Position numbers and translations under genes: made by a program | Origin: Rhodomicrobium sp. | Lineage (GTDB): Bacteria; Pseudomonadota; Alphaproteobacteria; Rhizobiales; HXMU1428-3 | Assembly: GCA_021604665.1 (NCBI GenBank) | Contig: BQJK01000001.1 | Location: 956,419-1,020,418, forward strand | Direction of reading: 5' to 3' | Length of the DNA stretch: 64,000 bases | Shown here: positions 4,209 to 63,945 of the stretch, one piece after another | How the letters are laid out: each line of letters starts with the position of its first letter | How positions within the stretch are numbered: position 1 is the first letter of the stretch | The notes under the pieces: model-generated | What the model was told of the DNA's origin: nothing | The model's database searches: none | What the model saw: only the letters and a program-made list of their open reading frames with translations

Positions 4209-4277
4209 TTATACTCTCTCCCCGTCATGCTGCCGCAGCGCACGCACAACCCTATCTAATGTCCGGCGTTATCAAAG

Positions 4278-6173
4278 CTAGCGGCGGTATTTAGCAAGCA
4301 CTTTTTCAGCTTTCTCAACCACCGCATCCGCAATCACCGCCTGCCCCTCAGCAGTCGGGTGAAACGCACCAGAATAAGTGCCCGCGATTAAAACCTGCAA
4401 TTGGCTAAAGCCTTTGATCTTGAAAATATTACGAATTACCGGCCCTGACAAATGTAAATGACCAGTTAGATACGCATCATTCGGTGTCCTGAACCATCGA
4501 GAACGGCTGGCATATGGTGCGTAATCTGCAGGGTTAAACGGATCCCATTTCTCCCCATCCCAAAATGGTAAGTGTAAATTCTCAGCAAGATCAGATTTGC
4601 GCGCCGCATCAATAGCGCAAAGCCCATGGCTGGAAAATGCCCGCCGGTGGCTGTCAACATAACTCCAATGGTAAAGATCAGCCGTCCGCTTCATAATCAC
4701 ATTCAACCTGTCAGCAAACTTCTCCGCCCGCCGAGCCCTCACAGAAGAAAGTGAGAACACAGGGGAAACCGTCATCCCAAGGTCCCCATTGTCACAAATC
4801 CGCCGCCCCTCATCACGAAACGACATATTCGGGTAAGAGGTCAGCAATATCCTGTCCGCCTCATTCCACGGAATGTGCAACACATTATGCAGCGCCCGCC
4901 GCAAAGCCTTGAAACGCGGCTTCAATTCTTTCAAATTATCCCGCGCCTGAACGGCATTAAGAATGCGCCCCATCCAACCACCAACCATTTTCAGGTTTAC
5001 AGTGTCCTTCACAATCACATTCGCAACCAGTGATGAAAACCCCACATCATTACCGCCAATAGACAGCATCAGCAGGTCAATCTTACGAGCGATCTTTCTC
5101 GGGCAGTTCAAAATGGGAAGGTCGTTCAAAATCTCCAACCGGTTATCAACCCCAAAAGCTCTGGCATAGTGTCTCTTACGCGCAGCTTTCGCCCCGCACT
5201 GCGCTTTAGCAACAGCACTAATCTGCGAGAGGCGGGGCGGGCTTAGCGACCATTCATTGCCCTTAAACCTGAGAAACAAACCATGGGTAATCTCAGCCCC
5301 GGCGCAGGCAAAGCCAACAAAGGTCACCGCCCGTTGCGGGTTGTTCAGCGCCAATTGCAAGCTGGCCCGCATCTGGTGCGAATAAAGCGAGCGATGGCAA
5401 GACTGCCCCATCCATAAGGCTTTGCCAGCCATAAAGCGATTATCACCAACAACCCTCCAGTCACCGGCCCGGGTTGGATAGGCCCGCCCGGCTTTTTTGT
5501 CATGTATAGTCGGTCCGTAAACCACAAATCGCTTGCGATCAAATCTCACTGGTACATCAGGGTTCCCCTCACCAGAGGCAAAGCTATCCCCCATCCCCAC
5601 GACCAGAATGTCCTCAACCTTAATAATTTTCTGAATTTGCGTGCCATCGGAAATATCAAGGTTCAACCGCGCCCCTTGAGGATATGGCACATGAAACGCC
5701 GCCACCTGATCACAGGGCAGGTTAACTGGTGTCGCAAGCGCTTTGATGCCATCAATCTCTGTCATCGTCCAACGGCAGCTTTTGCTAAGCCGCTCCGTCA
5801 GCGCTGCGCCATCAAGATGCACCCGAACAAGATGAGATTTCGGGTTGATATAATCGCCTTGAGATTTTCCGCAATTGCTATAAGCCCCCTTCTGTCTCGA
5901 CCAGCAGGTACGATCGAGCAAGTCTTGAGCCCAGCCAAATGGCAAATGAGATGACAGCCGCCGCTCACTGTTAAGCACAGGAGCAAGCCGCTCCACTGCA
6001 GTTAGCTGTTTATGAACAAGATGGTGAAATCTAAATATCTCATCATCCTTGAACAGCCTGAAAGGGTTGCTCAAAGCCCATTTAATTTCTAATGCTGATT
6101 GCGCAAAAACTGTTGATGGAGAAAGAAAAAAGAACAGCAAAGTCAAAGTCAACAAAAGGCGGGAAAGCTGCAT
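4278..6173 (-). CDS. Secreted SGNH/GDSL-type hydrolase with N-terminal extension
   Basis: Signal peptide; block I GMGDSFASGEG, block II FACAGAE, block III SIGGNDVGF, block V AFHPT. Confidence 0.8.
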   Translation of the reverse strand: MQLSRLLLTLTLLFFFLSPSTVFAQSALEIKWALSNPFRLFKDDEIFRFHHLVHKQLTAVERLAPVLNSERRLSSHLPFGWAQDLLDRTCWSRQKGAYSNCGKSQGDYINPKSHLVRVHLDGAALTERLSKSCRWTMTEIDGIKALATPVNLPCDQVAAFHVPYPQGARLNLDISDGTQIQKIIKVEDILVVGMGDSFASGEGNPDVPVRFDRKRFVVYGPTIHDKKAGRAYPTRAGDWRVVGDNRFMAGKALWMGQSCHRSLYSHQMRASLQLALNNPQRAVTFVGFACAGAEITHGLFLRFKGNEWSLSPPRLSQISAVAKAQCGAKAARKRHYARAFGVDNRLEILNDLPILNCPRKIARKIDLLMLSIGGNDVGFSSLVANVIVKDTVNLKMVGGWMGRILNAVQARDNLKELKPRFKALRRALHNVLHIPWNEADRILLTSYPNMSFRDEGRRICDNGDLGMTVSPVFSLSSVRARRAEKFADRLNVIMKRTADLYHWSYVDSHRRAFSSHGLCAIDAARKSDLAENLHLPFWDGEKWDPFNPADYAPYASRSRWFRTPNDAYLTGHLHLSGPVIRNIFKIKGFSQLQVLIAGTYSGAFHPTAEGQAVIADAVVEKAEKVLAKYRR

Positions 6174-52502: not shown

Positions 52503-53234
52503 CTACTCAGCGACCGCTTCAAAAAGATCAGGATAACGCGCCTTAACTTCAGCCCGTTTCGCCTCAATAGCCGCTTCATTCGCCCGGTCCGTCGGCAAAA
52601 TTTTCAAACGCTCACGCACACGGCCAGGCCGGGTGGTAATTAATAAAACCTCTTCACCAAGTTCCACAGCTTCACGCATGTCATGGGTCACCATCACAGC
52701 GGTTATCGGGTTGTCTTCCCACAATCGGCGCACAAGCTGGCGCAGCCTCGAAGCGGTTGGTGCATCTAGCGAAACAAAAGGTTCATCAAGCAATAATAGA
52801 TTTGGTTTCGTTGCAAACGCCCGCGCAATGCCAACCCGGCGCGCCAGACCAAGCGACAATTCAGAGGGAAAATTATCAACCAGCTCAGTTAGCCCCATCG
52901 CCTCCATCAGCTGGCTAAATTCAGCCTCACCAAACGTTGGGTCAGCCCGGAGCATCACATTGTCCCGAACGGAGCGCCATGGCAAAAGGCGCGGCTCTTG
53001 AAACACAAATCCAATTTTCGGCGGGGTCTCCCACTCCACCTTGCCTTTATAATGCGGGTCCAGCCCGGCAAGTATTCTGAGCAAGGTAGATTTACCGCAG
53101 CCAGATGGGCCAAACAAAACAGTGAAACTGTTTTTAGTCAGGGTGAAATGCGTATCCTCAAGCGCTAAAATCTTACCGCCATTGGCACTCGTATATATTT
53201 TTTCGTCTATATGAACCTTAAGCAGGCTCTGCAC
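52503..53234 (-). CDS. ABC transporter ATP-binding protein, NitT/TauT family
   Basis: GPSGCGKST, variant signature LSLGLARRV, LLDEPF; GTG start overlaps permease end. Confidence 0.9.
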   Translation of the reverse strand: MQSLLKVHIDEKIYTSANGGKILALEDTHFTLTKNSFTVLFGPSGCGKSTLLRILAGLDPHYKGKVEWETPPKIGFVFQEPRLLPWRSVRDNVMLRADPTFGEAEFSQLMEAMGLTELVDNFPSELSLGLARRVGIARAFATKPNLLLLDEPFVSLDAPTASRLRQLVRRLWEDNPITAVMVTHDMREAVELGEEVLLITTRPGRVRERLKILPTDRANEAAIEAKRAEVKARYPDLFEAVAE

Positions 53235-53964
53235 GCCAACGTGTTGCATAACGCTCCCACGGTTGAATAAACACAATTTCAATCACCAGCATCACCGCAA
53301 TAAAAGCAACGGAATAAGCAAAGATCGCCGCCACATTGAAGAGCTGAAAATAAGTATGGAGTTGGAAGCCAACCCCATCAGAGCGGCCGATAAACTCAAC
53401 CACCAAAACAATCTTCCATATCAATGACAAACCAGACCGCCCCGCCGCCGCTAAAAATGGCTGCAACTGCGGAAAGATAATATGCTGATAGCGCTGCAAA
53501 TTCGTATAACGGAAACTAGCCGCCATCTCATCCAGCTCAGCACTGAGAGACCGCGCGCCCTCGCGCAGCATCACCGCCACATTCGGCACCTTATTGATAA
53601 CAACAGCAAGAATGGCCGCTGTCTCCGTCAGGCCGCCCCAGATATAGCATAGGAATATGATAACAAGAGCAGGCACATTGAGAAAGAACACAAGCCAGGG
53701 GTCAAAAATGCCATTGAATAAATGGCTCCGCCCCATAGCAAGGCCAATCACCGTGCCAAGCAACATAGCAATCACAAAGCTGGCCATAACCCGCCATAGA
53801 GTAATAAACAGATGATAGAATAAATCCCCGTTTTGCACCTCATCGATCAGCGTCATGAATACTTTTTCAGGGCCGGGAAATAACCTGTCATTCACCAGCC
53901 AGGCCACAACAAGCCACAGCACCAAAAAACCAACAATCGATAACAGAGGATAGAACCGCCGCAT
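53218..53964 (-). CDS. ABC transporter permease, NitT/TauT family
   Basis: Six TM segments, EAA-like loop LDEMAASFR, EFIGRSDGVG. Confidence 0.9.
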   Translation of the reverse strand: MRRFYPLLSIVGFLVLWLVVAWLVNDRLFPGPEKVFMTLIDEVQNGDLFYHLFITLWRVMASFVIAMLLGTVIGLAMGRSHLFNGIFDPWLVFFLNVPALVIIFLCYIWGGLTETAAILAVVINKVPNVAVMLREGARSLSAELDEMAASFRYTNLQRYQHIIFPQLQPFLAAAGRSGLSLIWKIVLVVEFIGRSDGVGFQLHTYFQLFNVAAIFAYSVAFIAVMLVIEIVFIQPWERYATRWRAEPA

Positions 53965-53966
53965 AA

Positions 53967-54995
53967 CTACTCAGCCTTTTGCTCGGTTTCAACCGGTTGA
54001 GAGATATCACCCGTCAGCCAGAAGGTACCAGGACTTAGCGTTTTGGAATTGCCCACAAGTTTGCGGCCTCCAAGTTCCACCAGTACATTAAAAAGCCTTG
54101 CAACATCCGCCCGCTCAACAACAAGCGGCCGCCTGAGAATACCTATGCGAAATGATTTTTTCAGCGCTTCAAATGTTGCCTCATCTTCAGCCTTCATACG
54201 GGGGCGAATTTCCTCCCAGATGGCTTCATCCTTATCAAGAATTGCAATAGCATCCTGAATAGCTGAGAGAAACCCTCTTATTTGATCTTCATTGGCAGCG
54301 GCCCATTTATCGTGAAAAGCAAAGCCAATAGCGACAGTCGGGCCAGAAGTGCCAAGTCCGGTCATCACATCACCAACAGATAAAAGTGAGCGAAAACCTT
54401 TAGCTTCCAAACGCGCACTAAAATGCCAAAAGTTCAGAATAGCATCAAACTCACCGCGGATCATTTTCTGTGTCAACAAGGGCGGCGCCCCGTAAACAGG
54501 TGTCACGATCTCAGCAAGATCAACGCCAATAGTTTGCTTGGCGTAAGCGCGAAGGAACAACCAGCTTTTATCAAGCGGACCACCGGCAACGCCGAGTGTT
54601 TTACCCTTTAAATCCTCAAGCGACTTAATCGGAGACTCTGCCGCCACCATCAAATGACCAACAGCTGAACTATAAGGCACCATGGCAAAATCTGCGCCTT
54701 CAGCACGTTGCCTCGATATCCAGGTCCAGTCAGTTGCAACAATATCAGCCGAACCGCCCTGCAGAGCAATCTTGGCCCCATTCGTGTTCGCAAGCGGAAT
54801 AACACTCAACTTAAAGTTATGCTTCTCATCAAGTTTGCGCAGCTTCACCGTGTCCAGAACCCAGTTAACCGTTCCAAATTTTAAAGTCGCAACTCTGAGG
54901 GCATCAGCTGCTTGAGCTGGATTATTGCAGGCACTGCCGAAGCTAAGACATAAAACAACTAGGATGAGAGAGGTTAATCGCAAAATTGTCGTCAT
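53967..54995 (-). CDS. ABC transporter substrate-binding protein, NitT/TauT family (subtype seen with PQQ-ADH / lanthanide-uptake loci)
   Basis: Signal peptide; KFGTVNW, DWTWISRQR, PYSSAVG, GGPLDKSWL, YGAPPLL, LNFWHFSARLE; subtype call from memory. Confidence 0.8.
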   Translation of the reverse strand: MTTILRLTSLILVVLCLSFGSACNNPAQAADALRVATLKFGTVNWVLDTVKLRKLDEKHNFKLSVIPLANTNGAKIALQGGSADIVATDWTWISRQRAEGADFAMVPYSSAVGHLMVAAESPIKSLEDLKGKTLGVAGGPLDKSWLFLRAYAKQTIGVDLAEIVTPVYGAPPLLTQKMIRGEFDAILNFWHFSARLEAKGFRSLLSVGDVMTGLGTSGPTVAIGFAFHDKWAAANEDQIRGFLSAIQDAIAILDKDEAIWEEIRPRMKAEDEATFEALKKSFRIGILRRPLVVERADVARLFNVLVELGGRKLVGNSKTLSPGTFWLTGDISQPVETEQKAE

Positions 54996-55153
54996 ATATA
55001 TAGACACCTATTCGATAGAATTTGTTATGTCTGAAGGGCTGAACGCCCTTTGCTGGCGGTCTTTTACTAATTTATTTAGCTTTATTTTTGGCCATAATTT
55101 TCAGACCAAACTTTTCTCTAGAGAGACCATGCTTCCTGTAACCACCTATCTTT

Positions 55154-56654: not shown

Positions 56655-57263
56655 ATGACGACGCCCTCCACTATAATAAAGAGAAGATCAAAACGCCTGT
56701 TTCTCCCAGCGCTCGCCCTCCTGGCGGCGCTGAGTACCCTGCCAATAACAACAGCCTCCTTTGCAGCAGATGACACTGCAAGCGAAACAAAAAAAGTCAC
56801 CCTCATTGGCAAGGATGGCAGCCGCCTGGAAATTGCCAGCGTCACCCTTACAAAGACTGAGGAAGGCGAAAAAATCAGCATAAACTTCATCGAAGATCGC
56901 TTTTCAGAACATTTCCTCTCCATGCGGCCTTTCAAGTGCATAGATGGCGACCAAACCCTCTGTCACTTGCCCTACCCCTATAAAACCAAAGACATTATCA
57001 CCAAAGATAATTTGATGGACCTCGAATATAAGCTGCTCTTCATCCATAAGGGTGCCGGCGAATATGGCATTAACTTTTGGAATGGCGTTTATTATCGCCT
57101 AAAACGCGAACATGATGGCAGCTTCACAGGTGTCGTATGGGAAACAGATATGGACGAGCTTGCCGCCCCGCCGGAAGTAGAATACTCGCGCCCAATCGGT
57201 GGTGATGACCTTTCAGAAGGCGCTGAAGGAAAGCACCGCTATCCACTTGTAGAAATCAAATAG
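56655..57263 (+). CDS. Conserved exported protein of unknown function
   Basis: Signal peptide (RR-containing n-region); HFLSMRPFKC, DLEYKLLF, YGINFWNGVYY, ETDMDELAAPP motifs that I associate with PQQ-ADH neighbourhoods. Confidence 0.75.
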   Translation: MTTPSTIIKRRSKRLFLPALALLAALSTLPITTASFAADDTASETKKVTLIGKDGSRLEIASVTLTKTEEGEKISINFIEDRFSEHFLSMRPFKCIDGDQTLCHLPYPYKTKDIITKDNLMDLEYKLLFIHKGAGEYGINFWNGVYYRLKREHDGSFTGVVWETDMDELAAPPEVEYSRPIGGDDLSEGAEGKHRYPLVEIK

Positions 57264-58131: not shown

Positions 58132-58608
58132 ATGCAGCTCGCGCTGGTATTAGATCCCGCAAAGTGCACATCGTGCAAACAATGCGAAATGGCTTGTGCC
58201 TACGAGAACGAACAAACATTCAACCCGGCTAAATCCCGAATTCGTATTTTCGATTTCCATGAAGATGGCCGCTTTGTACCCTACACCTGCACCCAGTGCG
58301 ATGAAGCCTGGTGTCAGCAAGCCTGCCCGGTTAACGCCATCACCACAGACCCTGCCACCGGCGTTAAGCTGGTACATGATAATCTCTGCGTTGGCTGTAA
58401 AGTCTGCACAATCGCCTGCCCATTCGGCACCGTGAATTACAATGCAGCAACCGGCAAAGTAATCAAATGCGACCTATGCATGGGCGATCCAGCCTGCGCG
58501 AAAGCCTGCCCGACTGGCGCCATCACCTATTCAGATGTTGAGCAAGCAGGGTTTGACAAAATGAGAGCCTGGGCCGCCAAAACGGATTCCGGCGCACAAG
58601 CAACGTAA
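58132..58608 (+). CDS. aorA: 4x[4Fe-4S] polyferredoxin subunit of tungsten aldehyde oxidoreductase
   Basis: 16 Cys in four ferredoxin motifs; C-terminal helix GFDKMRAWAAK; AAGGAGG SD. Confidence 0.9.
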   Translation: MQLALVLDPAKCTSCKQCEMACAYENEQTFNPAKSRIRIFDFHEDGRFVPYTCTQCDEAWCQQACPVNAITTDPATGVKLVHDNLCVGCKVCTIACPFGTVNYNAATGKVIKCDLCMGDPACAKACPTGAITYSDVEQAGFDKMRAWAAKTDSGAQAT

Positions 58609-58672
58609 ACTATATGCGCCCATACCTGGCACAGCTTACGGCAAATAAAATTTCGTCAAGGGAGATGTCCTC

Positions 58673-60526
58673 ATGGCTTGGACACGAAAAGTACTAAGAA
58701 TTAATCTCACTTCAGGTGAGATCACAACTGAGCCCCTAAATATGGAATGGGCTCAAAAATATCTCGGTCAGCGCGGTCTGGCGACAAAATACCTAGTGGA
58801 AGAAACAGACCCGAAGGTTGATCCGCTTTCACCAGATAACAAAATGATCTTCGCAACCGGCCCGCTTACCGGCACATGCGCCTCAACAGGCGGCCGTTAT
58901 TCTGTCATCACCAAAGGCCCGCTTACAGGCGCAATCGCCTGCTCCAATTCAGGCGGTTACTTCGGACCAGAGCTTAAATTCTCTGGCTATGACATGGTCA
59001 TCCTTGAAGGCAAATCACCAAAACCGGTTTACCTCTCAATCTTTGATGACAAAGTAAAACTTCGCGATGCGTCTCATCTTTGGGGCAAATCTGTGTGGGA
59101 TACTGATGATGCTATTAAAGCTGAAGTCCAGGATCCGCTCGCCCACGTTGCCGCCATTGGCGTCTCCGGCGAAAAAGGTGTGCTCTACTCTTGCATCGTC
59201 AACAACAAGCACCGGGCAGCCGGTCGCTCAGGTGTTGGTGCTGTAATGGGCTCCAAAAACCTGAAGGCAATTGTCGCCAGAGGGTCAAACGGTGTCACCG
59301 TTGAGCAGCCACAGGAATTCTTTGCAGCCACTGATGCCGGCAAAAAAGTTCTGAAAGAGAATGCCGTGACAGGTGAAGGCCTCCCAGCTTTCGGCACGCA
59401 GGTTCTAATGAACGTCATCAACGAAACAGGCGCCATGCCAACCCGCAACTGCCGGGATGTTCAGTTTGAAGGCGCGCATGACATTTCAGCTGAAGCCATG
59501 GCAGAGCCGCGCCGCTCAGATGGCAAAGCTAACCTTTCAACAAACCAGGGCTGTTTTGCCTGCACCATCGCCTGTGGTCGTGTTTCCACTATCGACCCGC
59601 AGCACTACACCCTGCAAGGCGAAGGCAAGGATCAATATAAGCACGCCTCAGGTGGCCTTGAATATGAAGCAGCCTGGGCCCTTGGTTCCGCCACAGGTGT
59701 TAACGATCTAGACGCGCTGACATATGCTCAGTTCCTTTGCAACGAACATGGCCTCGACCCGATTTCACTCGGCGCGACCATTGCAGCAGCTATGGACCTC
59801 TATGAAGAGGGTGTCATCAACCAGGATATCACTGGTGGGCTAGACCTGCGCTTCGGCAATGCAAAAGCATTGACAGAAGCAGTAGAGCTAACCGGCACAG
59901 CTGAAGGTTTTGGTGTCGAGCTTGGCCTCGGCTCTGCCCGCCTATGTGCCAAATATGGCCGCCCGGATCTATCCATGACGGTTAAAAAGCAGGAATTCCC
60001 TGCTTATGACCCACGCGGCATTCAAGGCATGGGCCTCACCTATGCCACTTCCAACCGTGGTGCTTGTCACCTTCGCTCCTACACAGTGTCATCAGAAGTG
60101 CTTGGCATTCCTGAAAAAACTGACCCACTGGTAACTGAAGGTAAGGCCGCCCTTGTGAAAGCCTTCCAGGACGCCACAGCCGCTGTCGATAGCGCAGGTA
60201 TCTGCGTCTTCACGACCTTCGCCTGGACAATGGAAGACATTGCCCCTCAGGTGAATGCAGCTTGTGAAGGCAATTGGTCCGTTGATGCACTGATGGAAGT
60301 CGGTGAACGCATCTGGAATCTTGAGCGTCAGTATAATATGGCCGCTGGTATCCTCGGCGACCAGGACACCCTACCGCAGCGTCTTCTTAAAGAAGCCGCT
60401 AAAGTTGGCCCGGCTCAAGGACTGGTGAATGGCCTCGATAAAATGCTGCCAGAATATTACGAGCTTCGTGGCTGGTCTACAGATGGCACACCAACAGGTG
60501 AAACGATCTCTCGTTTAGGCCTGTAA
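58673..60526 (+). CDS. aorB: Tungsten-containing aldehyde:ferredoxin oxidoreductase catalytic subunit (AOR/WOR family)
   Basis: KGPLTGAIACSNSGG, HRAAGRSGVGAVMGSKNLKA, CFACTIACGR, EYE, GLDPIS, VKKQEFPAYDPRG, SNRGACHL, YYELRGW. Confidence 0.95.
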   Translation: MAWTRKVLRINLTSGEITTEPLNMEWAQKYLGQRGLATKYLVEETDPKVDPLSPDNKMIFATGPLTGTCASTGGRYSVITKGPLTGAIACSNSGGYFGPELKFSGYDMVILEGKSPKPVYLSIFDDKVKLRDASHLWGKSVWDTDDAIKAEVQDPLAHVAAIGVSGEKGVLYSCIVNNKHRAAGRSGVGAVMGSKNLKAIVARGSNGVTVEQPQEFFAATDAGKKVLKENAVTGEGLPAFGTQVLMNVINETGAMPTRNCRDVQFEGAHDISAEAMAEPRRSDGKANLSTNQGCFACTIACGRVSTIDPQHYTLQGEGKDQYKHASGGLEYEAAWALGSATGVNDLDALTYAQFLCNEHGLDPISLGATIAAAMDLYEEGVINQDITGGLDLRFGNAKALTEAVELTGTAEGFGVELGLGSARLCAKYGRPDLSMTVKKQEFPAYDPRGIQGMGLTYATSNRGACHLRSYTVSSEVLGIPEKTDPLVTEGKAALVKAFQDATAAVDSAGICVFTTFAWTMEDIAPQVNAACEGNWSVDALMEVGERIWNLERQYNMAAGILGDQDTLPQRLLKEAAKVGPAQGLVNGLDKMLPEYYELRGWSTDGTPTGETISRLGL

Positions 60527-60537
60527 CAATTAAAAAA

Positions 60538-60569
60538 GCGGCCCCAGCCATAAGCGCGGGGCCGTTTTT
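60538..60569 (+). terminator. Terminator-like hairpin between aorB and aorC
   Basis: GCGGCCCC-N12-GGGGCCGT followed by T4. Confidence 0.65.
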
Positions 60570-60776
60570 CAACCTAATAAATACATAAGAAATAGCGATA
60601 GGTTGTTCACCTCTTAACAGAAGGCAAAAATGCCTAAAGAGGTCTTTGAATATAGGGGAAGTGTTCTTTTAACTGGCCGGGAATAGGACGCCTGGGCAAA
60701 ACCATCTTGCCAGACGACCCGGCCCCCTCATTCAAAAGACGGTTCAACCGACAACATATATTAAAGGAATGCTGCC

Positions 60777-62033
60777 ATGCATTATCTTGTTTTGGGGGCC
60801 GGCCCTGCTGGCGTAACAGCCGCGGAAACCCTACGCAAACATGACAAATCCGCCAAAATCACTCTCCTCGGCGGCGAGCCGGAACCACCCTATTCTCGCA
60901 TGGCCATCCCCTATTATCTGATTGAAAAAGTCGGTGAAGACGGCACATATCTCCGCCAGACAGAAGGCCATTATGAACAGCATGGCATTGATTATGTCCA
61001 TGGCACTGCTGTTGCGCTCCAGGGCAAGGCAAAACGCCTGAAGCTAGAAGATGGCTCCGAACTCCAGTATGACAAACTACTGATCTGTACTGGCGCCAGC
61101 CCAATCTCCCCGCCGGTCCCGGGCCTTGATCGCCCCGGCATACATAATTGCTGGACCCTGGAAGATGCCCGCCACATCGCAGAGCTCTCACAAAAAGGCG
61201 ACCCTGTCGTACTAATGGGCGCAGGCTTCATCGGCTCCATCATCCTCGAAGCGCTCGCCCTTAAAGGCGTAAACCTAACAGTGGTTGAGATGGGAGACCG
61301 CATGGTCCCACGCATGCTGGATGAAACAGCCGGCAACATGCTGAAAGATTGGTGCATAGATAAAGGCGTCCGCGTCCTGACCAGCACCCAGATTTCAGAA
61401 GTCACAGATGGCTCTGAAGGCTTAACAGTTCACACCAAAGGCGGCGAAGCGCTAGATGCAAGATTATTGGTTGTCGCCGCGGGCGTGCAACCCAATATCA
61501 GCTTCCTTGCCTCAAGCGGTGTAGAAATCGACCACGGCATCATCGTTGATCAATATATGCGCACCAGCGTACCAGATGTTTACGCCGCAGGTGATGTTTG
61601 CCAGGCAATCGACTTCTCAACTCAAAAAGCTGAAATGCTGGCCATTCAGCCTGTAGCCGTAGAGCATGGCCGCATTGCCGCACAAAACATGGCCGGCAAA
61701 CCAACCCCCCATGAAGGCAGCCTGAATATGAACGTGCTTGAAGCCATGGGCCTCATCACAGCCTCCTTCGGTCTCTGGATGGGCGTTGAAGGCGGCGATA
61801 GCTGCCGCATGCATGACCCGGAGAACAACCGCTACTTACGGCTGGAGTTTGATGGCAACAAACTGGTGGGCGGCCAATCTGTAGGGTTAACCGAACATGT
61901 CGGCATGTTGCGCGGCCTCATCCAAACCGAGCTGGACCTTGGCGAATGGAAGAATAAGCTCATGAAATCACCAGAGCGCCTACCAGAAGCATATGTCGCT
62001 GTAGCCCAGCACAACTTTAACATTTCAGCTTAA
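60777..62033 (+). CDS. aorC: FAD/NAD(H)-dependent oxidoreductase subunit of AOR
   Basis: GAGPAG FAD motif, GAGFIG NAD motif, YAAGDV; AAGGA SD; position after aorB. Confidence 0.88.
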   Translation: MHYLVLGAGPAGVTAAETLRKHDKSAKITLLGGEPEPPYSRMAIPYYLIEKVGEDGTYLRQTEGHYEQHGIDYVHGTAVALQGKAKRLKLEDGSELQYDKLLICTGASPISPPVPGLDRPGIHNCWTLEDARHIAELSQKGDPVVLMGAGFIGSIILEALALKGVNLTVVEMGDRMVPRMLDETAGNMLKDWCIDKGVRVLTSTQISEVTDGSEGLTVHTKGGEALDARLLVVAAGVQPNISFLASSGVEIDHGIIVDQYMRTSVPDVYAAGDVCQAIDFSTQKAEMLAIQPVAVEHGRIAAQNMAGKPTPHEGSLNMNVLEAMGLITASFGLWMGVEGGDSCRMHDPENNRYLRLEFDGNKLVGGQSVGLTEHVGMLRGLIQTELDLGEWKNKLMKSPERLPEAYVAVAQHNFNISA

Positions 62034-62086
62034 TAATAAGGCTTTAAAAGCATAATAAGCAGTGATTACACACTGCACTTTCTCTC

Positions 62087-62123
62087 ACCGCCTCAGGGCA
62101 TTGCCCTGTTGGCGGTTTTTTTT
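62087..62123 (+). terminator. Intrinsic terminator after aorC
   Basis: ACCGCC-T-CAGGGC-ATT-GCCCTG-TT-GGCGGT followed by a long T-run. Confidence 0.85.
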
Positions 62124-62269
62124 AAGTTAAACTCTCTAAGGAACCGACTTGTAAATCTCATAGTTTTTTCAGAGCTTTATCATTTTCTGTTGAGTTTAAG
62201 TCACGACATCTACCCATTTTCGTTTAAAAAACACAATCCTGCCTCAATAAGCTTCCCCCCCTTGCAAAT

Positions 62270-62355: not shown

Positions 62356-63180
62356 ATGAATAAATACGCAATCGCATCACTCACATGCGCCTCTTTGCTG
62401 CTCGCAGCAAATCCAGCCTACGCCATCAGCCTTGAAGAAGCTGGCGTCGAAAAAGGCGAAGTCGAACTTCAGTATGAAGCAACCTACACTGATAAAAACG
62501 CCGAAGGTGCCTATGAGCATGAAGAAGAAATCGAAGTTCAAATGGGCCTGACAGACTGGTTGCTGCTCACCGTTGGCTTCGGTTTTGAGGAAGAGGAAGG
62601 TGAACGGGATTTTGAATTTTCCGAACTTGAGGGCTCAGTTCAAATTGAACTGGTTGATCCTGAAAAAGGTGGATTTGGATTTGCCCTTCTCGCTGGCTTT
62701 AGCAAAGAGTTCGCCGCAGAATCGGGAGAAGAGGACGAAAACACCTACAAGATTGGTGCCATTGCCGAGCACCACTACAATAAGTGGCTGTTCAGAGGCA
62801 ATCTGTTTTACATCTCCGATATTGACGGCGACGGCGAAGAAGAATTTGATGGCGTAGAATATGCCTATCAAATCAAATACGACGTTAGCGAAAAGCTCGG
62901 CGTCGGCGTTGAAGGCTACGGCACTCACCAGGAATTTGATGACCCAGGCGAAGATGATGTTGACCAGCACATGGTTGGCCCGGTTCTCTACTATAGCTTT
63001 GAACGTGGAAATGATACCAGCCGCCACGCGTCCATTAAAGATGTAGCTGAAATTGGCGGCGAAGACGGTGATGACGAAGATGAAGGCATCGAATTCGAGC
63101 TTCAGGCCGGCGTGCTGTTTGGCACAACGGACGACACCGCTGATGTGACTTATAAATGGGGCCTTGAGATCGAATTCTAG
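62356..63180 (+). CDS. Highly acidic outer-membrane beta-barrel protein (putative porin)
   Basis: Signal peptide ending AYA, alternating amphipathic strands, C-terminal YKWGLEIEF; about 69 Asp/Glu versus about 15 Lys/Arg in 274 aa (hand count). Confidence 0.8.
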   Translation: MNKYAIASLTCASLLLAANPAYAISLEEAGVEKGEVELQYEATYTDKNAEGAYEHEEEIEVQMGLTDWLLLTVGFGFEEEEGERDFEFSELEGSVQIELVDPEKGGFGFALLAGFSKEFAAESGEEDENTYKIGAIAEHHYNKWLFRGNLFYISDIDGDGEEEFDGVEYAYQIKYDVSEKLGVGVEGYGTHQEFDDPGEDDVDQHMVGPVLYYSFERGNDTSRHASIKDVAEIGGEDGDDEDEGIEFELQAGVLFGTTDDTADVTYKWGLEIEF

Positions 63181-63218
63181 GTTTTTCTCCTGGCACAGTA
63201 AATTTTCCTGGCACAGCC

Positions 63219-63254
63219 AAAAGCAGCAAGTCATCTCCGGCTTGCTGCTTTTTT
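63219..63254 (+). terminator. Intrinsic terminator after the porin gene
   Basis: AAAAGCAGCAAG-N10-CTTGCTGCTTTTTT. Confidence 0.85.
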
Positions 63255-63323
63255 GTTGGCTTATTGTTTATTGAGTTCTACGCGCCCAGCCATTAAAATC
63301 GGATGAAATGGAGAGACTTGATA

Positions 63324-63575
63324 ATGGATGTAACCCTGAAACTATATGCAACCCTAACGCCCTTCCTGCCCTCAGGTGCGGAGAAAAACCAGATTTCTAT
63401 AGATGTCTCAGAAGGCAGCTCAGTCATGGACATTGTAGATAAATACCAGCTGCCAAAAGAAAGCTGCCACCTCATTCTGGTAAATGGCAATTACACGCCT
63501 TTAGCTTCTGCTGACCAGAAAATCCTTGTAGAAGGTGACACCCTGGCTATATGGCCCCCCGTTGCCGGTGGGTAG
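63324..63575 (+). CDS. moaD: MoaD/ThiS ubiquitin-like sulfur carrier (AorD-like)
   Basis: LILVNG, GDTLAIWPPVAGG C-terminal di-glycine; GGAGA SD before ATG 63324. Confidence 0.9.
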   Translation: MDVTLKLYATLTPFLPSGAEKNQISIDVSEGSSVMDIVDKYQLPKESCHLILVNGNYTPLASADQKILVEGDTLAIWPPVAGG

Positions 63576-63855
63576 CCCATATCCCCATTCTATATATATT
63601 GGCTATTACCGATATAAAGCGGCGGTTTAAAAAACGAGAGGGTTAAGAATCTAACGGCTTTAAAACAACTGGGCACCCCTGGTTTTATTAGAGAGCTCTC
63701 AGAAAACCCCTCATTTTCTAAGAATAAGCCGTTTTATTGCATTTTTTAGGCTCAGATTCTGTTTTATGCCTAAGAGCTGATGCGCTATATTACAGACAAG
63801 TTAAAACACAGAGCCAAAGCCATTATGCTAAGGCTCACCAACGGGAGATAGCATT

Positions 63856-63945
63856 ATGAAAAATTGGACAACACCACAAGTTTCTGAAACTGAAACAGGC
63901 ATGGAAGTAACTTCTTATATGCCTGCTGAACTTGACCGCGCATAA
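63856..63945 (+). CDS. pqqA: PQQ precursor peptide PqqA (29 aa, MKNWTTPQVSETETGMEVTSYMPAELDRA)
   Basis: GGGAG SD 8 nt upstream; W-x-x-P leader and GMEVTSY core with the E-x3-Y pair; too short for the ORF track. Confidence 0.9.
   Translation: MKNWTTPQVSETETGMEVTSYMPAELDRA

Follow-up and report, generated by a model that had tools for sequence, protein, structure and literature searches.

The subject of this analysis is a β-barrel protein of the outer membrane, encoded at positions 62356-63180 (plus strand, stop codon included) of a 64,000-nt stretch of DNA, hereafter the window, from Rhodomicrobium sp. (GenBank assembly GCA_021604665.1, contig BQJK01000001.1, positions 956,419 to 1,020,418 of the forward strand). 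We propose that this barrel may be a passive, cation-selective channel that supplies metal when the enzymes dependent on pyrroloquinoline quinone (PQQ) are made, a reading to which we give a probability of about 0.42. The proposal builds on the fold class and charge of the protein, the structure of its family, its linkage to pqq genes and a promoter motif held in common with pqqA, from which we infer conduction and the likely nature of the ion. The cargo would most likely be a metal cation needed in building the PQQ enzymes.

The open reading frame (ORF) encodes 274 amino acids, starting with a signal peptide of residues 1-23 that ends in AYA|I (62356..62424) and finishing with a terminal Phe. 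The cleavage site was read from the sequence, and A21 and A23 are invariant or nearly so in the alignment. With 24 Asp and 45 Glu, the protein contains 25.2% acidic residues, or 27.5% in the mature chain, as compared with only 15 Lys plus Arg; its pI is 4.05 and its net charge about -54. These values agree with the first-pass annotation of this DNA, which had noted a signal peptide, a terminal Phe and about 25% Asp/Glu. The content of Asp+Glu ranks second among the 2,011 ORFs of at least 150 amino acids that were crudely called in the genome (2.9 Mb, 6 contigs, 98% complete; mean 11.9%, standard deviation 3.4%). The remaining candidate outer-membrane proteins of the genome, among them at least five general-porin-like proteins of 420-470 amino acids, have 11-17% Asp+Glu, indicating that the charge is specific to this protein and is not a proteome-wide adaptation to salt. 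The top-ranked acidic ORF (C4:178307-178765, minus strand; 152 amino acids, 27.6% Asp+Glu) encodes an exported protein without a family match, has a tail of (D/E)(A/V)PSD(D/E) repeats and adjoins a gene for a quinohaemoprotein alcohol dehydrogenase.

An AlphaFold2 model calculated from an alignment of 35 sequences showed 12 strands, with a mean predicted local distance difference test score (pLDDT) of 80 and a predicted template modelling score (pTM) of 0.75; pLDDT values below 50 were confined to the signal peptide and residues 220-241. The top Foldseek matches of the model were the 12-stranded barrels FapF and COG4313/Pput2725 and the 14-stranded OmpG, and Pput2725 (PDB 4rl8) was matched with a TM-score of about 0.58. 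The β-barrel that had been proposed from strand periodicity is thus borne out by the predicted structure. When the lumen side was assigned from the hydrophobicity parity of the strands, about 23 acidic residues as against 6 basic residues faced the lumen, and 19 of the acidic positions were conserved in the clade. The evidence supports a barrel of the outer membrane whose surface and lumen are exceptionally electronegative. Provided that both termini are periplasmic, as is the usual rule, the six extracellular loops would be short (3-9 residues) and nearly all acidic, and the single long loop would lie on the periplasmic side.

All of the acidic loops quoted in the first-pass annotation were found where it had placed them. 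The stretch EEEEGERD (residues 78-85, 62587..62610) covers the end of strand 3, a loop at residues 81-83 and the start of strand 4, and is predicted to be extracellular by the same rule on the termini. The acidic loop DIDGDGEEEFDGVE (residues 155-168, 62818..62859) joins strands 7 and 8. The loop DDPGEDDVD (residues 196-204, 62941..62967) joins strands 9 and 10 and immediately precedes the family-wide H205-x-x-G208-P209. The long loop, residues 218-244 between strands 10 and 11 (63007..63087), includes EDGDDEDE and the region of pLDDT below 50; it varies in sequence and length and is acidic in every orthologue. Before strand 1 there is a conserved N-terminal segment, ISLEEAGVEKGE (62425..62460), in which E28, E32, K33, G34 and E35 are invariant or nearly so. 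Conservation across 113 proteins of the wider family is highest at G34, E37, G64, T66, E78, G134, N149, Y169, E186, G189, H205, G208 and P209. The DxDxDG pattern at the start of DIDGDGEEEFDGVE (62818-62835) is confined to the window protein and two of 34 relatives, the two closest. Other orthologues carry DIDAEDDE, DLKNEEDE, DMDNEEDE and similar sequences at this site, so that the conserved trait is acidity and not the motif, and we rejected DxDxDG as a binding motif.

The barrel belongs to a large family for which database models offer little. A word-indexed search retrieved 36 relatives, none of them informatively named, and a profile search of 1.8 billion representatives retrieved 1,008 clusters at E ≤0.001 and 438 at E ≤1e-10. 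The Pfam model PF13557 (Phenol_MetA_deg) matched the window protein over residues 104-218 only, with 22.7 bits against a cut-off of 22, and reached E <0.01 in 9 of 35 family members with partial coverage. The generic model PF13505 was found in 28 of the 35; matches of generic Pfam barrel models to the window protein were below threshold. An NCBIfam scan of the barrel gave no match, and the family profile matched nothing among Protein Data Bank sequences, even at E 10. The barrel is not a general trimeric porin of 16-18 strands, as it has 12 strands and Porin_4 was detected in one of the 35 members, nor a TonB-dependent receptor of the LutH type, as it is 274 amino acids long with 12 strands and has no match to Plug or TonB_dep_Rec.

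In a maximum-likelihood tree of 91 barrel domains, the family falls into two clades, separated at 100/100 support. All 27 barrels linked to the iron permease FTR1 are in clade I. Clade II comprises 48 entries, from Methyloligellaceae, Hyphomicrobiaceae and Devosia, and has no FTR1-linked member. The window protein lies in clade II, within a tight group of 11 (100/100 support), and a second group of this clade, of the Methyloceanibacter type, shares about 27% identity with it. The window protein is therefore not a member of the FTR1-coupled clade, being placed opposite to it at 100/100 and encoded in a genome without FTR1. The content of Asp+Glu rises stepwise with context, from 15% in other barrels to 17% in FTR1-linked, 21% in pqqB-linked and 26% in those of the window clade.

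We assessed the link to FTR1 in an even sample of 401 Alphaproteobacteria, of which 24 genomes, the window genome included, have a family member. Besides the window genome, 23 genomes contributed 24 loci, which together with one locus of genome G452 made 25 near-full-length barrels. In 11 of the 25, the barrel either shares a reading frame with FTR1 or follows it directly, and the order cupredoxin, FTR1, barrel was found in 18 more loci in a scan of named genomes, including Guyparkeria, Halothiobacillus, Steroidobacteraceae and a Zetaproteobacterium. Several representatives of about 520 amino acids contain, in a single frame, an FTR1/EfeU iron permease, a hydrophobic segment with an A-x-A-type site and the barrel domain. 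This arrangement suggests that an inner-membrane permease and an outer-membrane barrel may be made as one polypeptide and cleaved afterwards. Examples of the junction are TASA|G and DVHA|G, and a cupredoxin gene usually precedes the fusion; fusions were seen in P0125, P0147 and P0151 and at loci L017, L024, L031, L036, L037, L112-L114, L122, L127, L130, L131, L133, L134 and L136. The resemblance to barrels of FTR1-type iron loci that had been noted earlier is thus real, about half of the wider family being fused or adjacent to FTR1. Since the sister clade is encoded as cupredoxin, FTR1 and barrel, the whole family is tied to metal-cation uptake. We found nothing in our literature searches on this family, on its division into two clades, on the fusions with FTR1 or on the clade linked to PQQ, all of which appear to be undescribed.

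In the window, the barrel gene is surrounded by genes of a tungsten aldehyde oxidoreductase (AOR) and followed by those of PQQ synthesis. Upstream are aorA, aorB and aorC (58132..62033, plus strand), and downstream are aorD, encoding a MoaD/ThiS-like protein (63303..63575, plus strand; promoter-like site at 63271-63299), and the first copy of pqqA (63856..63945, plus strand; 29 codons); another, identical copy and pqqBCDE come immediately beyond the window end. At L067, a locus running past the window, the pqqA copies occupy 4275-4364 and 4773-4862, and pqqB occupies 5005-5976. The two copies encode identical 29-residue peptides about 500 nt apart, and three copies are present in related species. 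An ATP-binding cassette (ABC) importer of the SsuA/NMT1 type, consisting of ATPase, permease and binding protein, is encoded on the minus strand at 52503..55007. The gene order is constant in the genus, namely the importer (minus strand), a CXXCW rhodanese, a 202-residue exported protein, aorABC, the barrel, aorD, two or three pqqA copies and pqqBCDE; the part from aorC to pqqBCDE was found in all longer contigs examined. Eleven of 13 other species of the genus have the barrel, and the two without it are represented by genomes that are 70-78% complete. The 202-residue exported protein (56655-57263, plus strand) has no family match and is conserved between the rhodanese and aorA in most genus loci that reach that far. 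One metagenome-assembled genome encodes an additional 607-residue exported protein between aorC and the barrel (L003:7880-9703) with a faint EF-hand hit; being basic, Lys-rich and a lineage-specific insertion, it was dismissed as a relevant partner.

The association with pqq genes recurs in the second group of clade II. In the Methyloceanibacter-type group, 16 of 21 barrels adjoin a pqqB gene whose product scores 380 bits with the PqqB equivalog model (cut-off 245). These loci (L104, L094 and 14 similar) have this lone genuine pqqB beside the barrel, with no pqqA, pqqC or pqqE within 6 kb. In addition, they encode an OmpR-type regulator with a divergent histidine kinase, as well as an ABC importer with a binding protein matching that of the window. 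No aor genes were found within 6 kb of the Methyloceanibacter-type barrels, and genome G452 has such a barrel and PQQ dehydrogenases with no AOR genome-wide. The conserved partners of the barrel are therefore the pqq genes and the ABC importer, and not the tungsten enzyme. The window protein shares all traits of what we propose as a PQQ-island clade, that is, placement in clade II, adjacent pqq genes and linkage to an SsuA/NMT1-type importer. It had been suggested earlier that the barrel feeds the nearby importer; what holds up is the linkage itself, conserved in both PQQ-associated clades, from which a transfer of cargo may be surmised.

The barrel gene is flanked by intrinsic terminators on both sides, as the first-pass annotation had stated. 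The upstream one, located after aorC by a terminator scan (62087..62124, plus strand), is a hairpin followed by U8, with a folding energy of -22.1 kcal/mol within 62080-62128 and a z-score of -5.4 as compared with shuffled controls. The one after the barrel (63210..63261, plus strand) has a 14-bp stem followed by U6, with -28.2 kcal/mol within 63195-63262 and a z-score of -4.7 against the same kind of controls. A hairpin with a T-run is present at the equivalent place after aorC in orthologous loci, and a hairpin 3' of the barrel also in Methyloceanibacter-type loci. The terminator after aorC separates the barrel from the aorABC transcript. A search of the 240-nt leader for known RNAs and riboswitches (Rfam, E ≤0.1) gave only a sub-threshold small RNA match on the opposite strand, to the Rhizobiales small RNA Atu_C9 (63220-63321, minus strand; 20 bits against a gathering threshold of 40, E 0.059). 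As this match overlaps the barrel terminator, it probably reflects just the hairpin.

Between the upstream terminator and the barrel, about 150-200 nt upstream of the start codon, there is a promoter-proximal element of three direct TCTYA repeats about 10-11 nt apart followed by TGTTGA (62153..62207, plus strand). It is conserved in 13 orthologous barrel upstream regions, which have the three repeats and, after them, TGTKA. When the genome was searched with a model built from barrel upstream regions only, five non-self hits were obtained at E ≤30. The best of these and one more lie on the coding strand 150-200 nt upstream of the two pqqA copies, where about 4e-4 such hits are expected by chance. 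The copy within the window is weaker and lies about 150-170 nt upstream of pqqA copy 1 (63684..63704, plus strand; C1:1020102-1020122), and each pqqA copy has its own upstream element. Of the 14 pqqA copies at seven loci of different species, 13 are preceded by the element, and the Methyloceanibacter-type barrel promoters have a similar TCAT-type repeat with a spacing of about 11 nt. A comparison by eye only with Irr, RirA and Mur/Fur boxes revealed no convincing match in the upstream element. The recurrence of the barrel repeat at pqqA indicates that the link of the barrel is to PQQ and not to AOR, and the motifs suggest that the barrel is co-regulated with PQQ synthesis, being probably switched on together with it. 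The linkage to PQQ genes called for in the first-pass annotation is hence found in two diverged clades, and again in this motif. On contig 2, an OmpR-type regulator and a histidine kinase gene adjoin a PQQ dehydrogenase gene (C2:594649-596954, minus strand). These are the best homologues (47% and 33% identity, respectively) of the pair beside the Methyloceanibacter-type barrels, making the regulator (C2:594649-595329) a candidate binder of the TCTYA repeats.

The window genome encodes seven PQQ dehydrogenases, five of which have the lanthanide-type D-Y-D motif: an XoxF-like enzyme (C1:842622-844406) and those at C1:591007-592764, C1:278050-279882, C1:1280013-1281728 and C1:1284824-1286824. The other two, a quinohaemoprotein (C4:175868-178003) and the enzyme at C2:591323-593254, have the motifs DYT and DFS. 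Genome-wide, we found neither a Plug domain nor FTR1, and no TonB-dependent receptor barrel scored above threshold, which extends to the whole genome the earlier remark that the window has no TonB receptor. Metals, including iron, must consequently cross the outer membrane of this strain through diffusion channels.

Taken together, these results are consistent with a mechanism in which the 12-stranded barrel, of monomeric size, would act as a passive and strongly cation-selective diffusion channel. Carboxylates of the six short Asp/Glu-rich extracellular loops would surround the mouth as a ring and raise the concentration of cations there, and a ladder of about 19 conserved lumen-facing Glu/Asp would convey them inward, near E37, E78, N149, E186 and H205. 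The long acidic loop on the periplasmic side may release the cations or hand them on. The gene is its own transcription unit and is probably induced along with PQQ synthesis, perhaps by an OmpR-type response regulator. As cargo, Ln3+ or Ca2+ for the periplasmic PQQ dehydrogenases appears the most attractive, because either would fit the PQQ link, the extreme charge and the presence of lanthanide-type enzymes; Fe2+ would be the chief alternative if one argues from the FTR1-coupled sister clade, and would suit the family-wide His and Glu positions.

Several observations weigh against this proposal. The conserved N-terminal segment could occlude the lumen, 12-stranded barrels being often plugged, and ISLEEAGVEKGE is a possible lumen plug by comparison with COG4313 barrels. 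The assignment of lumen and lipid sides and the orientation of the loops derive from the parity of the sequence. The DxDxDG loop, which had been taken for a Ca2+/Ln3+-type binding signature, did not survive comparison with the orthologues. About 21 clade II barrels, including those of Hyphomicrobium, Devosia and G452, are in uninformative neighbourhoods, so the PQQ linkage is not universal; neighbourhoods without FTR1 or pqq, consisting of housekeeping or unrelated genes, were discarded as a clue to function. TonB-dependent receptors, with 1-14 Plug-domain proteins per genome, are present in 13 of 13 other species of the genus, barrel-bearing ones included, which rules out the barrel as a genus-wide replacement of these receptors. 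Finally, lanthanides are present in seawater at about picomolar concentrations as against millimolar Ca2+ and Mg2+, and a passive carboxylate channel would be filled mostly by the latter.

Of the known systems, PcoB of the E. coli pco determinant (PcoB/CopB) offers a functional parallel, as both are small outer-membrane β-barrels and PcoB conducts Cu2+ passively to the periplasm through an electronegative funnel that opens outward and has paired acidic residues in the pore (PMC9210255). However, the barrel has no Pfam CopB match, its family profile does not reach PcoB among Protein Data Bank sequences (E ≤10), and PcoB is not within its 50 best Foldseek matches. The contexts differ as well, PQQ genes as against copper resistance, and the charge of the barrel is far more extreme. 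The COG4313/PF13557 barrels Pput2725 and SphA resemble it in having 12 strands, a similar size, a conserved segment before strand 1 and a marginal Pfam and fold match, but the sequence match is borderline and partial, and COG4313 proteins are thought to pass hydrophobic molecules, whereas the lumen here, with its excess of acidic residues, would be lined with Glu. The FTR1/EfeU and cupredoxin systems (FtrABCD-like) share with the barrel family the sister clade encoded in the order cupredoxin, FTR1, barrel, often in a single frame, although the window protein belongs to the other clade and its genome lacks FTR1. To our knowledge, no dedicated outer-membrane component of the described FTR1 systems is known, and our literature search found none. 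MnoP of Bradyrhizobium japonicum, a Mn2+-selective, TonB-free outer-membrane channel that is regulated together with the matching inner-membrane transporter, is an earlier example of a metal-specific channel in the outer membrane of an alphaproteobacterium; it is a member of a different, larger porin family, which sets it apart from the barrel. We suppose, by analogy, that the barrel may work like the metal-cation channels PcoB and MnoP while standing outside their families; any relationship to COG4313 is a distant one at most.

In the lut cluster of Methylorubrum extorquens (PMC7391723), passage of the outer membrane through LutH is likewise paired with an ABC system and its periplasmic binding protein (LutAEF); as here, genes of methylotrophy and PQQ lie close by and the organism has dehydrogenases of the lanthanide type. 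LutH is an energised TonB-dependent receptor for a chelate, with 22 strands and a plug, in contrast to the 12-stranded barrel, which has no plug domain and for which the lanthanide link is our suggestion. Mutants of lutH are reported to adapt and to bring La3+ through the outer membrane all the same, by a mechanism that the authors describe as unknown (PMC7391723). That study does not assign LutA to a family, and we do not equate the importer of the window with LutAEF. A bolder version of our proposal would have the barrel as a dedicated TonB-independent lanthanide channel of marine methylotrophs that forms, with the SsuA/NMT1-type ABC importer, a full uptake route switched on with PQQ by the OmpR-type two-component system, and that corresponds to the outer-membrane route of the lutH mutants; we regard this version as speculative and improbable.

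Other explanations have to be weighed against the supply of metal to PQQ enzymes. One is that the barrel is an entry channel for Fe2+, or another divalent transition metal, with the same job as in the FTR1/cupredoxin sister clade, feeding the iron enzymes encoded nearby. The surrounding genes indeed specify iron-hungry enzymes (the iron-dependent PqqB, the Fe-S protein PqqE, and AorA/AorB with five Fe-S clusters), FTR1 with cupredoxin is the fused or adjacent partner in about half of the wider family, and H205 and E186, conserved family-wide including the FTR1-linked members, suit borderline metals better than Ln3+; with no TonB-dependent receptor in the genome, iron too must diffuse in. Yet the window protein is in the clade without FTR1-linked members, at 100/100 support, its genome has no FTR1, acidity climbs stepwise toward the PQQ-linked clades, and the promoter element ties the barrel to pqqA with no iron-regulator box seen by eye. 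We consider iron unlikely, though a serious contender. That the barrel is not a channel at all seems less probable still. It could be a plugged barrel whose acidic loops bind Ca2+ or Mg2+ at the surface of a salt-loving methylotroph, to stabilise the envelope and its surface charge or as a cation buffer, with its position near pqq being inherited synteny. Such a role would be in keeping with the Pput2725-like 12-stranded barrels, which are occluded by an N-terminal segment of the kind conserved in this family, with the unrelated neighbourhoods of many clade II members, and with the general-porin-like proteins that the genome already has. It does not explain why about 19 conserved acidic residues are on the lumen-facing sides of strands and not in the loops alone, the FTR1 fusions point to a transport role for the family, and a promoter motif common with pqqA is hard to attribute to synteny alone.

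The neighbouring importer invites a different idea, which we find quite doubtful, that the barrel admits a cationic or zwitterionic organic solute, such as an amine, an amino alcohol or a pyrimidine-like compound, for uptake by this SsuA/NMT1-type system. Barrel and importer are linked in two clades whose barrels share only about 27% identity, and SsuA/NMT1/TauA-type binding proteins usually bind small organic molecules; moreover, SphA, a COG4313 barrel, imports the cationic lipid sphingosine. Nevertheless, genes for the breakdown of such a compound are missing from the conserved core, the sister clade has a metal permease as its partner, and a charge of -54 is far above what a monovalent organic cation would need. 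A COG4313/Phenol_MetA_deg-type channel for the hydrophobic substrates of the PQQ dehydrogenases and AOR (alcohols, aldehydes, aromatics) is suggested by the marginal PF13557 match and by Pput2725 among the fold matches. It is very improbable, as that Pfam match is partial and found in a minority of members, the family profile matches no Protein Data Bank sequence, and a Glu-lined lumen is the opposite of what hydrophobic passage requires. The position of the barrel between aorC and aorD, conserved throughout the genus, might also be taken to indicate a role in tungstate uptake or AOR maturation. The first-pass annotation had argued that the tie to tungstate is weak, and the comparison bears this out: relatives retain the barrel without AOR, the barrel has its own terminators and promoter element, and its negative charge should repel tungstate. 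On the strength of G452 and the Methyloceanibacter-type loci, we rejected this role as having hardly any likelihood.

Metal supply to the PQQ enzymes thus remains the reading that we prefer, and it bears on the organism and on the family alike. The genome of this marine methylotroph pairs five lanthanide-type PQQ dehydrogenases with no TonB-dependent receptor. In addition, the analysis delimits a family of barrels, about 1,000 clusters in size, that has no specific Pfam or NCBIfam model. Since the clade I barrel is translated in frame with FTR1, the family suggests that the FTR1/cupredoxin systems of many Proteobacteria have an outer-membrane component of their own. If it is true that the channel selects trivalent ions, it might be of interest for rare-earth recovery. 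Owing to its charge of -54, the promoter element that it has in common with pqqA and a linkage to pqqB maintained across barrels of about 27% identity, the barrel is a concrete and testable candidate for the passage of lanthanides and other metal cations across the outer membrane independently of a TonB-dependent receptor.

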